Of a DNA stretch of 64,000 nt, positions 5,168-24,563 are shown piece by piece. The position numbers and the translations under genes were made by a program. Numbering within the stretch: position 1 is the stretch's first letter; the number at the start of each line of letters is the position of its first letter. Source of the stretch: Candidatus Hadarchaeum sp. (GTDB lineage: Archaea; Hadarchaeota; Hadarchaeia; Hadarchaeales; Hadarchaeaceae). Below the pieces are notes generated by a model. The model was not told where the DNA came from. It saw only the letters and a list, made by a program, of their open reading frames with translations, and did not search any database. The DNA is taken from positions 1 to 64,000 of the forward strand of contig NZ_JAVZIN010000001.1 in NCBI RefSeq assembly GCF_038871235.1, read 5' to 3'.

Positions 5168-6302
<1,135 letters not shown>

Positions 6303-12252: not shown

Positions 12253-12385
12253 AGCCCCGTGGGGTAGACCCGCAGGAGGCGGGGCCCATCGGTCAATCCT
12301 GGCGGGCACCGGCAGGCCGCAATCTGGACCCGCTGACCCCGGTTCGAAATCGACAGCGTCGACGAGAATCCGGGCGGGGCTACCA
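12253..12385 (+). tRNA. tRNA-Gln(CUG) with three BHB introns (15/16: 12268-12289; 32/33: 12308-12322; 59/60: 12349-12368)
   Basis: Spliced product AGCCCCGTGGGGTAG-CGGTCAATCCTGGCGGGC-TCTGGACCCGCTGACCCCGGTTCGAA-TCCGGGCGGGGCTACCA is a 76-nt cloverleaf followed by a T-run. Confidence 0.93.
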
Positions 12386-15364: not shown

Positions 15365-15537
15365 ACAGATGAATTTTGTCCTTTTTTCTTATTTAGGTTT
15401 GAAGTCGTGAGATTTTGTGCCTTTAACTTTATATAGCAACCGATGATTTTCGAGGCCTCCAAAATCGAGTTTTGGGGTAACGAAAGGTATTTTAGCGAGC
15501 CTCGTGAAGCAGAAACGGAAACTTGGAGAGACAGCGC

Positions 15538-17763
15538 ATGAGCGTGAAGTTTTCTGTGGTGGGAAAGCCGGTCCCCAAGCTTGACGCGGTTAAACTTGCC
15601 ACGGGTAAGGCGGAGTTTTTGGACGATATCAGGCTGCCTGGAGCGCTCTCGGTGAAGTTGCTCGGCAGTTCATGTGCCCATGCCCGGATAAGGAGGATTG
15701 ACGTGAGCCGGGCGGAGAGGCTTCCGGGAGTGAAGGGTATCGTCACCTACAAGGATGCACCGAGGGTTCCCTTCAACCCGGGCGTCTACTACATCCTGCC
15801 CAAGGACAAATACATTTTCGACGAGAAAGTGCGCTTTGTCGGGGAGCCGGTGGCGGCCGTGGCGGCGGTGGACGAGGACACCGCCGAGGAGGCAGTCTCG
15901 CTGATCAATGTTGAGTATGAGGAGTTGCCGGCGGTTTTTGACCCAGTCGCAGCCATGGACCCCAAGGCGCCCAAAATCCACGACACCAACATCGCCGCTC
16001 ACATCACTAGGGAGTGGGGAAATGTTGAGAAGGGCTTCCGCGAGGCGGATCGCATTTTTGAAGGCAAGTACACGACCGGAAGGCAGGCGCACGCCCCGAT
16101 TGAGCCCCACGCCTGCGCGGCCTCTTATGAGTTGGGAAAGCTGACCGTCTGGACGACCAGCCAGATTCCCTTTCACGTTCGTTCCATCTTGTCTGAGGTC
16201 TTCGGTTTGCCCCAGCACAGGATCAGGGTAATCACCTCCTTCGTGGGTGGAGGCTTCGGCGGCAAGGACGAGGTCATCCTTGAGCCCATCTGCGCCCTGT
16301 TGGCGATCAAGCTCGGCGCCACCGTCAAGTTGAGGCTGAACCGTGATGAGGTCTTTTACACGACCACAACCAGACACCCCTCGATAATCTGGTTGAAGAC
16401 AGGGGTGAAGAAGGATGGGACCTTGGTGGCGAGGCAGGTAAAGGCGATCCTGAACACGGGTGCCTATGCTTCCCACGGGCCCTCGGTGGCCGGCGCTATG
16501 AGCACGAGGGAGCTGGGTCTTTACAAGTCGCCCCACGTGAGTTTTGAGGCTGATGTAGTCTACACCAACAGCCCCACGGCCGGAGCCTTCCGCGGCTATG
16601 GAAACCCGCAGCAGAGCTTTGCCGTGGAATCGCAATTGGATGAAATCGCCGAGGAACTGGGCATCGACCGCGTGGAGCTGAGGCTGAAGAACACCATCCG
16701 CAGCGGTGATATAAACCCCGGGACCGGTTTGAGGATTGAGAGCTGCGGGCTGGAGGAGTGCATAAGGAGGGCCACGGAAAGGATAGGCTGGCGGCAGAAG
16801 TCCCGAGACATCGAGAGTGGCAGGTTGAAGAACCGCGGTCTGGGCATCGCCTGCCTGATGCACAACAGCGGTGCCTTCCCCTACATCAAGGAATCATCTT
16901 CAGCGATCGTTCAGATCAACGAGGATGGCTCGGTGCAGGTGATGACGGGGGCGACCGACATCGGGCAGGGGATCACGACCACCATCGCCCAGATGGTGGC
17001 GGAGGAGCTCGGCGTGAATTTGGAGAGCATAGCGGTTTCCCGTCCCGACACCGAGTTTGTTCCGGTGGACCGGGGAACCTACGCCAGCGGAGAGCTCTAC
17101 ATCAGCGGTCAGGCGGCGAGGCTGGCCGCCGCGGATGCCAAGCAGCAGCTACTAAAGAAGGCAGCCGAGGTGATGGAGGCCAAGCCCGATGATTTAGAGA
17201 TCGTTGGCGGTGTAGTTCGGTTGAAGAAGAATCCGCAGGTGGGAAAGACCATTCGAGAGATAGTCGGTGAGGTGGCGATAGTCGGCAGGGCCTCATACAT
17301 GCCGCCGAGCAACGCCCCGCTGTTTGGCGCCATGTGCGTGGAGCTGGAGGTAGACCCAGAACTCGGCAGCATCAGAGTGCTGAATATTACTTATGCAGCC
17401 GACGTCGGTCGGGCGATCAACCCCTTAATAGTTGAGGGACAGATCGAGGGCGGGGCAGTGATGGGGTTGGGCTTCACTCTCACCGAGGAGTTGGTTCTGG
17501 ACAGCAATGGTCGGGTGATCAACAAGAACTTCACCGACTACAAGCTTCTCCATGCGTCAGATTTGCCGCGGATAGAGCCCATCATCGTTGAATCCCATGA
17601 GCCAACGGGACCATTCGCCGCTAAGGGGGTTGGTGAGCCTGCCTTGGTTCCAGTGGCTCCAGCCATAGCCAACGCTATATACCAGGCGGTCGGCGTCAGG
17701 ATAAGAGATCTGCCGATAACTCATAATAAAATACTGAGGGCCCTAAAAGACCGTTTAAAGTGA
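15538..17763 (+). CDS. Xanthine dehydrogenase/aldehyde oxidoreductase family molybdopterin-binding subunit
   Basis: GGGFGGK, AFRGYG, GQGITT, EGQIEGG, KGVGE motifs. Confidence 0.93.
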   Translation: MSVKFSVVGKPVPKLDAVKLATGKAEFLDDIRLPGALSVKLLGSSCAHARIRRIDVSRAERLPGVKGIVTYKDAPRVPFNPGVYYILPKDKYIFDEKVRFVGEPVAAVAAVDEDTAEEAVSLINVEYEELPAVFDPVAAMDPKAPKIHDTNIAAHITREWGNVEKGFREADRIFEGKYTTGRQAHAPIEPHACAASYELGKLTVWTTSQIPFHVRSILSEVFGLPQHRIRVITSFVGGGFGGKDEVILEPICALLAIKLGATVKLRLNRDEVFYTTTTRHPSIIWLKTGVKKDGTLVARQVKAILNTGAYASHGPSVAGAMSTRELGLYKSPHVSFEADVVYTNSPTAGAFRGYGNPQQSFAVESQLDEIAEELGIDRVELRLKNTIRSGDINPGTGLRIESCGLEECIRRATERIGWRQKSRDIESGRLKNRGLGIACLMHNSGAFPYIKESSSAIVQINEDGSVQVMTGATDIGQGITTTIAQMVAEELGVNLESIAVSRPDTEFVPVDRGTYASGELYISGQAARLAAADAKQQLLKKAAEVMEAKPDDLEIVGGVVRLKKNPQVGKTIREIVGEVAIVGRASYMPPSNAPLFGAMCVELEVDPELGSIRVLNITYAADVGRAINPLIVEGQIEGGAVMGLGFTLTEELVLDSNGRVINKNFTDYKLLHASDLPRIEPIIVESHEPTGPFAAKGVGEPALVPVAPAIANAIYQAVGVRIRDLPITHNKILRALKDRLK

Positions 17764-18022: not shown

Positions 18023-18194
18023 TGGTGCGGGGGGAGGGATTTGAACCCTCAACATTCGGATATCAGACCCAGGAGTCTTCAGTTTTGCCCCTCGAGGGCT
18101 GTCCCCAAGGTCCGACACTATTGAGCCAGGTTTTACCTGGTCTCCCATTTCAATCCGGTGGCCTTTATCCACCAGATGGTTGAGTTACCCCCGC
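18023..18194 (-). tRNA. tRNA-Phe(GAA) with four BHB introns (17/17a: 18177-18148; 22/23: 18141-18120; 30/31: 18111-18084; 37/38: 18076-18062)
   Basis: Spliced product GCGGGGGTAACTCAACC-TGGGAG-AGTGTCGG-ACTGAAG-ATCCGAATGTTGAGGGTTCAAATCCCTCCCCCCGCACCA is a 77-nt fully paired cloverleaf. Confidence 0.92.
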
Positions 18195-18348: not shown

Positions 18349-19695
18349 ATGGTGATGTTTAGTTATAGGGGCGAGGTTGAGAAAATTTTGCGAAGGGCAG
18401 CAGTAAAAGTTGGTGACAAAATTAAGGTCGTAAGCCGCCGCCGAGCCTATATCGGTGTTTTGATGCCCCGCACCGAGCTGGGTGATCCTAATCATCTGGT
18501 TCTCAAGTTGGCCAACGGTTACAACATCGGCGTGAAGGTCGATAGAGACACTGAGGTTACCTTGCTGGAAAGTCAAGAGCTACCAGAACTAGCCGTGCCC
18601 AAGCCAGAGAGGCCCCAGGATCCATCTAAGCCACGGGTGACGATAGTGGGCACCGGGGGGACGATTGCCAGCAGGGTCGATTACCGCACCGGAGCGGTCT
18701 ATCCTGCGTTTACTCCTGAGGACATTTACGGCGCGGTCCCAGAGATAGCCGAGATTGCCAACATCAAGGTCGTTCAGGCCTGCAACGTGTTCAGCGAGCA
18801 CATGACCCCAGACCTCTGGGTGAAGATAGCCCGGGTTGTAGCCAAGGAAATCAACGGCGGGGCTACGGGCGTCGTCGTGGCCCACGGCACCGACACGATG
18901 AGTTATACCGCCGCCGCACTGAGCTTCATGCTCAAAGGATTATTCCGCCCGGTAGTTTTAGTGGGATCGCAAAGGTCCTCTGACCGGCCGAGCAGCGATG
19001 CCGCCTTGAACCTGATTTCAGCAGTCGCAGTCGCCGCCCGGTCGGATATCGCCGAAGTTGTTGTTGTCATGCACGGGTCAACCGAGGACGACTTCTGCTT
19101 AATCCATAGGGGGACGAAGGTAAGGAAGTGCCACACCAGCCGCAGGGACGCTTTTCAGAGCATCAACGACATCCCTCTGGGTATGGTACGAAACGGACAG
19201 ATCAAGCTGTTCCGCGATGACTATCACCGCGCCAGCTCCGAGGGCAGGGTCAGAGTGCAGGGCCGGTTTGAGAAAAAAGTCGCCCTGTTGAAGGCCACAC
19301 CGGGTTTGCCCTCCAGCGTTATCAAAGGTATCGTGGCTTCGGGTGATAAAGGTATCGTGATTGAGGGGACCGGGCTGGGCCATGCTCCCCAATCTCTTTT
19401 CGAGGGAATCGAATTCGCCGGAAAGAGAAAAGTACCTGTGGTGATGACATCGCAGTGCCTCTGGGGGAGGGTTAATATGAACGTCTATTCAACGGGCCGC
19501 GACCTGCTCCAGCTCGGCGTGATCCCTGCCGAGGACATGCTCCCTGAGGTGGCTTGGGTGAAGCTGATGTGGGTTCTGGGCAGGACCAAGGATCCAGATA
19601 AAGTGGCCAAGTTAATGCAGCGAAATCTGACTGGAGAGATAACCCCTAGAACCCGACCCGATGTTTTTCTAAAAACCATCTTCACCTCTGAGTAA
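18349..19695 (+). CDS. gatD: Glutamyl-tRNA(Gln) amidotransferase subunit D
   Basis: LKLANGYNIG, TGGTIASRVDYRTGAV, HGTDTM, GSQRSSDRPSSD, KCHTSRRDAF motifs. Confidence 0.98.
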   Translation: MVMFSYRGEVEKILRRAAVKVGDKIKVVSRRRAYIGVLMPRTELGDPNHLVLKLANGYNIGVKVDRDTEVTLLESQELPELAVPKPERPQDPSKPRVTIVGTGGTIASRVDYRTGAVYPAFTPEDIYGAVPEIAEIANIKVVQACNVFSEHMTPDLWVKIARVVAKEINGGATGVVVAHGTDTMSYTAAALSFMLKGLFRPVVLVGSQRSSDRPSSDAALNLISAVAVAARSDIAEVVVVMHGSTEDDFCLIHRGTKVRKCHTSRRDAFQSINDIPLGMVRNGQIKLFRDDYHRASSEGRVRVQGRFEKKVALLKATPGLPSSVIKGIVASGDKGIVIEGTGLGHAPQSLFEGIEFAGKRKVPVVMTSQCLWGRVNMNVYSTGRDLLQLGVIPAEDMLPEVAWVKLMWVLGRTKDPDKVAKLMQRNLTGEITPRTRPDVFLKTIFTSE

Positions 19696-22760: not shown

Positions 22761-24563
22761 ATGTGCGGCATCGTGGGTTATATCGGCAGCCGTCCAGCAG
22801 CGCCGATATTACTGGAGGCGCTCCGGCGACTTGAGTATCGGGGTTATGATTCAGCCGGAATGGCCACGGTTTTTAAAAAATTGTTCGTCAAAAAGGACCG
22901 AGGGAGAATTGCTGATATTGACCGGAGGCTAAAATTGGCGGAGATGCCGGGCCACTTGGGTTTGGGACACACTCGCTGGGCTACGCACGGCGAGCCCTCC
23001 AGAGTTAACGCTCACCCTCACCTCGACAACTCGGAAAAAATTGCCGTGGTACATAACGGAATTATCGAGAACTATTCAGAAATAAAAAAGTTCCTCCAGA
23101 AACATGGTTATCGTTTCTTTTCAAAGACCGACACCGAGGTAATTCCCAACTTGATCTCCTATTTTGTTGGTCGGGGCTATGATCTGGAGGAGAGCGTTAG
23201 GCGGGCAGCCAAGCGGCTGAAGGGCAGTTTCGCTTTGGCCATTGTCAGTGTGGATGAGCCAGATAGGATCATTGCGGTTCGTCAGGATAGCCCGTTGATT
23301 ATAGGACTCGGAAGCGGAGAGACCTTTTTGGCCTCAGATATACCCGCGATGCTCCAGCACACCAACCGGGTGGTGGTGCTTGAGAACGGCGAGATGGCGG
23401 TACTGGCGCCTGGCCACGTGGTGATTAAAAAGTTCAGTTCCGGTGTCGAGGTTAAACGAAAGCCCATGGTGATCAGGTGGACGGCCGAGATGGCGGAGAA
23501 GGATGGTTATCCTCACTTCACCTTGAAGGAGATCTTTCAGCAGCCGGGCGCTGTTCAAGAAACTCTTCGCGCGCCGTTAGATGAGCTGAAAAAGCTGGCC
23601 AGATTTCTGCTCAGTGCCAAACGGGTTTATTTTGTCGCCTGCGGCACCTCCTTCCATGCTGCGCTGGTGGCGAAATATGTGCTGGCTAAGCTGGCCGAGT
23701 TTCCGGTAGAGGTAGTGATTTCCTCAGAGTTCGGCGAGATTGGCAGTAGCGATGACGAAACGGCAGTGTTGGCCATCACCCAGTCAGGAGAGACGGCTGA
23801 TACGCTGAAAGCGGTTGAGGCCGCCAAGGCTGCTGGGGCAAAGGTAGCCTGCCTGACCAACGTTGTGGGCAGTTCCATAACTAGAATGAGCGACCTAGTC
23901 TGCTATACCTATGCTGGACCTGAGGTCAGCGTGGTAGCGACGAAAACTTTTGCCGCTCAGGTGGCCTACTTGCTGCGGCTCGCCATACAACTGGCTGAGG
24001 AGAGGGAAAGATCCTGTGTGAGGTGTAGGAGCTTGGCAGCTGGGCTGATGTTGCTGCCCGATGACATGCGAAGAGTTTTGGATGGGATAAATTCTCAGGT
24101 GAAACGGCTAGCTCGTCGTCTAGCTAAAGCGGATAATATTTATCTTATCGGGCGCGGGATTGGCTACCCGCTGGTGCTGGAAGGAGCCCTAAAGATTAAG
24201 GAGATCACTTACATCCATTCAGAGGGAATGCCAGCCGGTGAACTCAAGCATGGAACTCTGGCGCTAATCGAGGAGGAGACGCCAGTCATTGCCGTGGTGC
24301 CACCTGGGGAAATGCGGGTGAAGATGGTAAGCAATGTCGAGGAGGTAAAGGCACGTGGGGCCTACGTCATCGCCATAGCCGACAATGGCAAGGACCTCAG
24401 GGAGCATGTCGACGAACTGATATCGATTCCGCACACTGAGGAGTTCTTTAGCCCCCTTCTCTTCATCATCCCGCTTCAGCTGCTCGCCTATTATATTACT
24501 GTGGAAAAAGGACAGGACCCCGACCGACCCCGATCATTGGCCAAATCGGTCACGGTGGAGTAG
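22761..24563 (+). CDS. glmS: Glutamine-fructose-6-phosphate aminotransferase
   Basis: MCGIVG, LEYRGYDSAG, GHTRWATHG, QSGETADT, ELKHG, LAKSVTVE motifs. Confidence 0.99.
   Translation: MCGIVGYIGSRPAAPILLEALRRLEYRGYDSAGMATVFKKLFVKKDRGRIADIDRRLKLAEMPGHLGLGHTRWATHGEPSRVNAHPHLDNSEKIAVVHNGIIENYSEIKKFLQKHGYRFFSKTDTEVIPNLISYFVGRGYDLEESVRRAAKRLKGSFALAIVSVDEPDRIIAVRQDSPLIIGLGSGETFLASDIPAMLQHTNRVVVLENGEMAVLAPGHVVIKKFSSGVEVKRKPMVIRWTAEMAEKDGYPHFTLKEIFQQPGAVQETLRAPLDELKKLARFLLSAKRVYFVACGTSFHAALVAKYVLAKLAEFPVEVVISSEFGEIGSSDDETAVLAITQSGETADTLKAVEAAKAAGAKVACLTNVVGSSITRMSDLVCYTYAGPEVSVVATKTFAAQVAYLLRLAIQLAEERERSCVRCRSLAAGLMLLPDDMRRVLDGINSQVKRLARRLAKADNIYLIGRGIGYPLVLEGALKIKEITYIHSEGMPAGELKHGTLALIEEETPVIAVVPPGEMRVKMVSNVEEVKARGAYVIAIADNGKDLREHVDELISIPHTEEFFSPLLFIIPLQLLAYYITVEKGQDPDRPRSLAKSVTVE

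Follow-up and report, generated by a model that had tools for sequence, protein, structure and literature searches.

The number of introns per archaeal tRNA gene is given as up to three in a 2015 review (PMC4390854) and as two or three in the tRNAscan-SE 2.0 paper (PMC8450103), which also describes the ordered removal of overlapping introns. Three is likewise the maximum per tRNA gene in Cyanidioschyzon merolae (PMC3728597), while a computational census of Asgard archaea, a preprint of October 2026, arrives at up to five intervening sequences per tRNA gene. The subject of this analysis is a gene for tRNA-Phe(GAA) interrupted by four introns of the bulge-helix-bulge (BHB) type. It is located in a 64,000-nucleotide (nt) stretch of the genome of Candidatus Hadarchaeum sp. 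(assembly GCF_038871235.1, contig NZ_JAVZIN010000001.1, positions 1 to 64,000), referred to as the window. Very probably the gene is functional and apparently the sole one for tRNA-Phe(GAA) in this Hadarchaeum-like archaeon; its four introns would be cut out by a single alpha-type EndA endonuclease and its exons joined by RtcB. It is a well-supported multi-intron archaeal tRNA gene, new in a lineage where the phenomenon has been noted only generally, with an intron count above the classical maximum and not above the latest claims.

The Thermoproteales genes for Pyrobaculum calidifontis tRNA-Glu(UUC) and P. islandicum tRNA-Pro(UGG) (PMC4390854) resemble this locus in their short BHB introns, which occupy canonical and non-canonical sites of a colinear gene and have relaxed motifs. 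Also shared with Thermoproteales are neighbouring introns whose motif forms only after another has been removed (PMC8450103). However, Thermoproteales genes hold up to three introns and are served by an alpha plus beta EndA with a Crenarchaea-specific loop, whereas the Hadarchaeum gene holds four and its genome encodes a single alpha-type EndA; the former organisms belong to Thermoproteota, the latter to Hadarchaeota in the kingdom Methanobacteriati. The Asgard archaea of the 2026 preprint are similar in having mostly interrupted tRNA genes, many D-arm introns missed by annotators, a preference of the insertions for BHB-competent sites, and gain and loss of introns among close relatives. The two cases differ in phylum, in their genomes (about 1.2 Mb) and in that each Hadarchaeum boundary is fixed by orthologs without the intron. 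Hadesarchaea YNP_N21 (PMC5829648) belongs to the same phylum and has an alpha4-type EndA; the main text of that paper gives neither per-gene intron counts nor tRNA-Phe. In C. merolae, tRNA-Phe(GAA) has introns in the D-stem and at 37/38 and tRNA-Ile has three, and reverse transcription PCR showed an ordered removal in which the 37/38 intron leaves last (PMC3728597). That organism is a eukaryote with some permuted genes, and its splicing was observed, whereas that of Hadarchaeum is deduced from the DNA.

A four-intron gene had been called exceptional in an earlier, sequence-only reading of the window. This stands with respect to the classical limit of three, but not with respect to the Asgard preprint, nor within the genome itself: the Phe gene is not extreme there, as the initiator tRNA-Met gene is mapped with five introns. 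Full-text searches of the literature turned up no paper on a four-intron archaeal tRNA-Phe and none with per-gene counts for Hadarchaeota, although supplements (PMC5829648, PMC11291895 and that of the 2026 preprint) may hold such data; for tRNA genes with four or more introns in general, the up to five of the Asgard preprint are already on record.

The gene lies in a 585-bp gap between two plus-strand open reading frames (15523-17763 and 18349-19695). When its 172 nt are cut in the order exon 17, intron 30, exon 6, intron 22, exon 8, intron 28, exon 7, intron 15 and exon 39, and the exons are joined by script, a sequence of 77 nt results, which ARAGORN reports as tRNA-Phe(gaa) [1,77] with four stems, all paired, and a terminal CCA. 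RNAfold returns the same cloverleaf at -30.8 kcal/mol. The anticodon GAA, the 7-nt loop CUGAAGA, GGG before A21 in the D-loop and a discriminator A are all visible in the ARAGORN drawing. Work in yeast and E. coli identified the GAA anticodon, U33, a purine at position 37, G20 and A73 as the identity elements of tRNA-Phe, and the joined exons carry every one of them. The five exons follow one another in order on a single strand over 172 nt, so the gene is neither split nor permuted. Thus the arrangement seen in the sequence-only reading, with introns at 17/17a, 22/23, 30/31 and 37/38, was confirmed in every detail by script joining, ARAGORN and intronless orthologs, and its core interpretation is supported.

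Features of the tRNA-Phe(GAA) locus, with coordinates in the window; exon and intron sites are given as tRNA positions
Feature	Position	Strand	Remarks
Whole tRNA-Phe(GAA) gene, 172 nt	18023..18194	-	CCA encoded in the genome at 18023-18025
Exon 1, 17 nt	18178..18194	-	positions 1-17: acceptor 5' strand, U8 A9, D-stem 5' strand, start of D-loop
Intron 1, 30 nt	18148..18177	-	at 17/17a in the D-loop; HBh' type; 4/4 central pairs, inner hairpin of 8 bp, outer helix of 1 bp
Exon 2, 6 nt (micro-exon)	18142..18147	-	U17a G18 G19 G20 A21 G22
Intron 2, 22 nt	18120..18141	-	at 22/23 in the D-stem; 4/4 central pairs (one G-U), inner hairpin of 6 bp, outer helix of 0-1 bp
Exon 3, 8 nt	18112..18119	-	positions 23-30
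Intron 3, 28 nt	18084..18111	-	at 30/31 in the anticodon stem; 4/4 central pairs, inner hairpin of 8 bp, outer helix of 2-3 bp
Exon 4, 7 nt	18077..18083	-	positions 31-37, including the anticodon GAA
Intron 4, 15 nt	18062..18076	-	at the canonical site 37/38; 3/4 central pairs, inner hairpin of 2 bp, the anticodon stem serving as outer helix
Exon 5, 39 nt	18023..18061	-	positions 38-76, from the 3' strand of the anticodon stem through the variable loop and T arm to the 3' acceptor strand, A73 and CCA
A/T-rich box TTTTTAA	18221..18227	-	27-33 nt upstream of the first tRNA base

The exon boundaries are fixed by comparison with relatives. In a panel of 66 Hadarchaeota genomes (the window's genome being G000), one intronless ortholog, that of G024, is identical letter for letter to the joined exons of the window. 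This ortholog (L015) scores 69.6 bits on RF00005, where the gathering cut-off is 29, whereas the unspliced locus (L001) gives no match at E<=1. In its unspliced form the gene escapes both ARAGORN and Rfam/Infernal, whether the window or the entire genome is scanned, as had been expected of standard finders.

A heuristic excision solver, written for this analysis, removes BHB-like segments and tests the remainder for a cloverleaf. With up to three excisions it obtained no cloverleaf from the Phe gene, and with four it obtained five solutions; with 20 shuffles of the internal 137 nt, no solution appeared with up to four excisions. The four further parses, with cloverleaf scores of 14-15, and an ambiguity of 1-2 nt at the junctions of introns 2, 3 and 4 when a single sequence is considered, leave some room for a functional gene with a different map: shifted D-arm boundaries, a D-loop of 7 or 11 nt, or fewer introns. 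Such a map is extremely improbable. The alternative parses have central helices of 3/4, the proposed map being the sole one of the five with 4/4 in introns 1-3; no parse with three or fewer excisions exists; and the intronless orthologs are reproduced exactly by the proposed map only.

The splice motifs were read in a frame in which exon nucleotides -6 to -3 of the 5' site pair with intron nucleotides -6 to -3 of the 3' site. Introns 1, 2 and 3 have central helices of TCAA with TTGA, TGGG with CTCA and TGTC with GGCA, and intron 4 has one of CTGA with TCTG. The 3-nt bulges of introns 1 to 4, with a slash at the cut, are CC/A and AA/T, AG/A and AT/A, GG/A and AA/A, and AG/A and AT/A. With boundaries taken from the intronless orthologs, all eight junctions (8/8) fall after the second bulge nucleotide, which is a statement on geometry only. 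The helices, cut positions and inner hairpins are therefore as first described. The locus displays what characterises BHB introns, namely a 4-bp central helix, two 3-nt bulges, at least one flanking helix of at least 2 bp and a canonical tRNA after excision. Introns 1-3 lack the combination of outer and inner helix of the strict hBHBh' motif and adopt the relaxed HBh' form (nomenclature as in the 2026 Asgard preprint). The motifs are also tightly packed: exon 1 supplies the exon strand of the intron 1 central helix at positions 12-15 (TCAA), exon 2 consists exactly of the 4-nt central-helix strand and the two exon-side bulge nucleotides of intron 2, U17a is at once the third nucleotide of the 3' bulge of intron 1 and part of the first pair of the intron 2 central helix, and C32 and U33 belong both to the short outer helix of intron 3 and to the central helix of intron 4.

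The predicted folds give a mixed picture. The local BHB fold of intron 3 is the local minimum-energy fold (-14.0 kcal/mol) and that of intron 1 is at or near the local minimum. Several structural points weigh against the proposed splicing. The motif of intron 4 is weak, having 3/4 central pairs and a 2-bp inner helix, and its BHB fold is calculated at +3.9 against -4.0 kcal/mol for a rival hairpin; introns 1-3 are without a proper outer helix; and for the entire precursor the fold of lowest energy (-77.0 kcal/mol) differs from the all-BHB fold (-67.6 kcal/mol with BHB motifs 1-3 enforced). Whole-precursor thermodynamics is taken here as evidence for neither side.

Comparative evidence for the motifs comes from 11 aligned three- and four-intron genes, on which helix covariation was measured. 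In the BHB helices of introns 1-3, 93.6% of cells are paired, compared with 31-58% when partners are slid; the central helices of these introns are 100% paired in 11/11 genes, and nine helix pairs changed on both sides. For example, exon nucleotide 15 and its partner in intron 1 covary, forming A-U in 6/11 genes and G-C in 5/11, and two inner-helix pairs of intron 2 show compensatory changes. A blastn-short search of the four introns against the G000 genome returned self-matches only and gave no hint of copies elsewhere in it.

Locating the Phe gene across the panel succeeded in 51 genomes and failed in the other 15; insertions always occur at the same four sites. All four introns are present in nine genomes from five genera (G000, G001, G002, G006 and G007 of g1; G018 of g12; G019 of g2; G009 of g3; G043 of g9). 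Introns 1-3 without intron 4 occur in two (G042, G045), the D-arm pair of introns 1 and 2 in two (G010, G037), intron 2 alone in two (G033, G064), introns 3 and 4 in 22, and at least intron 3 in one (G057); nine genomes have a fully read gene without introns, and in four exons 2-4 are contiguous, the rest of the gene being unread. Intron 1 is absent from the 22 two-intron and the nine intronless orthologs. A certain linkage is apparent, introns 1 and 2 occurring together in 13/15 of the genomes with either (the exceptions being the two with intron 2 alone), and introns 3 and 4 co-occurring except in G042 and G045. Intron numbers of 0, 2, 3 and 4 all occur within the single genus g9, which points to rapid turnover; the same four sites, filled or empty in close species, provide a natural series for the study of tRNA intron gain and loss. 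When prokaryotes, represented by one genome for each species, were scanned for the pattern, nine loci came up, all with titles of Hadarchaeota, Hadesarchaea, Hadarchaeum or Hodarchaeaceae, among them Candidatus Hadarchaeum yellowstonense YNP_45, whose gene is the same as that of G002, of the window's genus.

The manner in which these genes diverge bears on whether the gene is in use. Within the genus, exons are identical at 74/74 positions in five species while the introns are 91-99% identical; between genera, exon identity is 84-93% as against 57-70% for introns, and the exon changes leave the stems paired. Such constraint, together with compensatory changes in the intron helices, argues against a decaying pseudogene whose task, the reading of Phe codons, has passed to a second tRNA-Phe gene that is missing from the assembly or escapes detection through heavy disruption. 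The same arrangement is moreover the only strong Phe match in all nine four-intron genomes, and four kinds of scan of G000 gave no other Phe candidate: blastn with the mature sequence found exons 1 and 5 plus T-arm look-alikes only, the anticodon-arm scan found chance matches only, and T-arm scans, including one allowing T-loop introns, as well as ARAGORN, yielded none. Two ARAGORN "Phe" calls obtained when long introns were allowed (C9:63237 and C10:2631) were rejected, their products of 97-99 nt having long extra arms; the solver resolves them as two-intron genes for tRNA-Arg(TCT) and tRNA-Arg(TCG). The earlier expectation that no second tRNA-Phe(GAA) gene exists is thus borne out within an assembly of 94.75% completeness.

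Some observations weigh in the other direction. The genome is divided into 16 contigs and a second Phe gene could sit in its missing part, and first-pass scans do overlook heavily disrupted genes, those for tRNA-Gln, tRNA-Tyr and initiator tRNA-Met having surfaced only with the scan for T-loop introns. In addition, none of the 22 sequencing runs listed with the stretch is recorded as RNA, and no spliced joint occurs in the contigs of the four checked for joints (X14, X15, X16 and X20), which are labelled "METATRANSCRIPTOMIC" and marked "probably DNA". Contigs of X14-X16 (170-368 nt) cover 18023-18192/18197 in unspliced form with three differences, and X20 holds a two-intron form from a relative. 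All in all, the pseudogene explanation is very improbable beside that of a functional, single gene. The runs come from eight studies, and the stretch is therefore not an assembly artefact. As a separate observation, some short contigs stop at the ends of the gene, with loose ends of 18-20 nt that are mutually reverse complementary; an adapter, a repeat-graph effect or a tandem copy may be their source, and no conclusion is drawn from them.

The genome encodes both an endonuclease and a ligase suited to the proposed splicing. The EndA gene (G000:C10:38604-39140) specifies 179 aa with matches to PF02778 (78.2 bits) and PF01974 (115.5 bits), and RtcB is encoded at C2:119502-120809 (601.7 bits). 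The closest solved relatives of the EndA are those of M. kandleri (5x89), ARMAN-2 (4fz2) and M. jannaschii (1a79). Its one subunit, about 180 aa long, comprises an N-terminal and a C-terminal domain, and no further EndA-like gene accompanies it; these are features of the alpha4 type, the assembly itself being predicted. A search of G000 for EndA paralogs found none at E<=10. Beside this gene, a 376-aa open reading frame directly follows EndA on the same strand in locus L040 (G000:C10:37128-40385), the two frames abutting (1474-2013 and 343-1473).

Disrupted tRNA genes alongside an alpha4-type EndA have been reported for Hadesarchaea (PMC5829648). The same paper describes alpha4-type EndAs as strict for full BHB motifs, a further difficulty for the splicing proposed here, and ties broad EndA specificity to inserted loops, the Hadesarchaea enzyme being said to bear one (L3). 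No L3 loop was recognised in the G000 EndA by comparison with 1a79, although the position of L3 is not stated in the text of PMC5829648; nor is there any C-terminal insertion relative to M. jannaschii EndA that might explain a broader specificity. Since three of the four motifs lack an outer helix and beta subunits are divergent in other lineages, a cofactor or a structural subunit not yet recognised, or a feature of the EndA peculiar to this lineage such as an L3 loop, might confer the tolerance for HBh' motifs, with the gene spliced exactly as mapped. We regard this as unlikely, while giving it appreciable weight. G000 has a single PF01974 gene, and a match to this family was found in 59/66 panel genomes, exactly one in 56/59 of them. 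The alpha protein, as a query able to detect the beta-like half of M. kandleri EndA (81 bits), retrieves nothing else from G000 at E<=10, and the alignment to 1a79, which spans residues 15-179, has no gap in the C-terminal domain. A lone alpha-type EndA therefore remains our preferred reading. Such an enzyme would apparently process three HBh' motifs, in the D-loop, the D-stem and the anticodon stem, which makes the system a probe of the relation between EndA architecture and substrate range.

We infer from the sequences that splicing takes place, that it follows an order, that micro-exons are handled in sequence and that EndA acts as a homotetramer. Transcription would yield a precursor of about 172 nt, folding locally into three HBh' hairpins (introns 1-3); a homotetrameric EndA tolerant of these relaxed motifs would cut each pair of sites and RtcB would seal the exons. 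Intron 3 must leave ahead of intron 4, since the motif of intron 4 is closed by the anticodon stem, which does not exist until exons 3 and 4 have been joined: the outer helix of intron 4 measures 1 bp while the precursor is complete and 5 bp once intron 3 is gone, in agreement with the dependence of the 37/38 motif on 30/31 removal proposed in the sequence-only reading. Cleavage and ligation probably alternate, with each micro-exon of 6-8 nt handled in sequence, because cutting on both sides of exon 2 before ligation would free a hexamer and the micro-exon would be lost. More generally, given micro-exons of 6, 7 and 8 nt and splice motifs with nucleotides in common, cleavage and ligation are predicted to follow an obligatory order. 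As to transcription, the TTTTTAA box upstream of the gene may be an archaeal TATA element, given the spacing expected of such elements. A sigma-70/terminator scan around the gene gave no match, the model of that scan being inapplicable to archaea.

The Phe gene is part of a wider pattern. According to the heuristic solver, the other tRNA genes located in G000 comprise 14 with no intron, 11 with one, seven with two and three with three (Trp, Gln and Tyr), plus two unsolved (C2:136948-137065 and C6:45465-45558); one call, C3:74507-74735, is likely a false gene. The initiator tRNA-Met(CAT) gene, located outside the window at G000:C11:14227-14437 (+), contains five BHB-type intervening sequences, mapped by ortholog comparison: in the acceptor stem at 4/5 (16 nt, central helix 4/4), at 30/31 (22 nt, 4/4), at 37/38 (34 nt, 3/4), at 45/46 (31 nt, 4/4) and in the T-loop at 59/60 (30 nt, 4/4, with the full hBHBh' motif). 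Its first exon is just 4 nt long and the splice helix borrows two leader nucleotides. Each of the five insertions is absent from some ortholog. The script-spliced product is recognised by ARAGORN as tRNA-Met(cat), whereas the unspliced gene is missed by ARAGORN and Rfam. Initiator genes with five introns are also present in G002, G006, G007, G010 and G012, and that of G009 (L096, G009:C41, about 5338-5602) has six intervening sequences: acceptor stem 18, D-loop 28, 30/31 20, 37/38 36, 45/46 30 and T-loop 26 nt, of which the D-loop insertion is a poor BHB fit with 2/4 central pairs.

These counts have a practical consequence for annotation. ARAGORN and Infernal/Rfam detect no tRNA-Phe, initiator tRNA-Met, tRNA-Gln or tRNA-Tyr in G000; since standard finders miss these genes, Hadarchaeota genomes will appear to lack essential tRNAs. 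It is an evenly balanced question whether Hadarchaeaceae hold the most densely interrupted colinear tRNA genes yet mapped junction by junction (four introns in Phe, five in initiator Met, six in the G009 initiator, with micro-exons of 4-8 nt and a presence that varies within a genus), processed by a single alpha-type EndA with neither a beta subunit nor a recognisable specificity loop. In that case, the restriction of alpha4 EndAs to strict BHB motifs would not hold in Hadarchaeaceae, and cleavage and ligation would have to alternate strictly.

Other tRNA genes and tRNA-like pieces were noted in passing. A probable tRNA-Gln(CTG) gene in the window at 12253-12385 (+) has three intervening sequences, in the D-loop (22 nt), anticodon stem/loop (15 nt) and T-loop (20 nt). 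Its boundaries are provisional, as they come from a relaxed form of the solver only and ARAGORN accepts many other excisions; unspliced, it is missed by ARAGORN and Rfam. The tRNA-Tyr(GTA) gene, located beyond the window at G000:C1:83700-83836 (-), has introns at 37/38 (17 nt), in the variable region (22 nt) and in the T-loop (21 nt), and was found only with T-loop introns allowed. On C13, at about 23680-23725 (-), an orphan 3' piece comprising T arm, acceptor strand and discriminator equals the end of tRNA-Arg(TCT); there is no 5' half within 320 nt and the sequence upstream is coding-like, and the piece may be an integration-site remnant. Just upstream of the initiator tRNA-Met gene, a conserved 6-bp hairpin (L075-L104; for example G000:C11:14203-14226) has a 5' arm that duplicates nucleotides 1-6 of the tRNA, in genomes both with and without the acceptor-stem intron. 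Finally, the tRNA-Trp(CCA) gene at G000:C4:29590-29745 (+) has three introns by the solver, one of which, of 41 nt, holds GATGATGA and CTGA. We take these two motifs to resemble box C and box D, which would match the guide RNA carried by the euryarchaeal tRNA-Trp intron.

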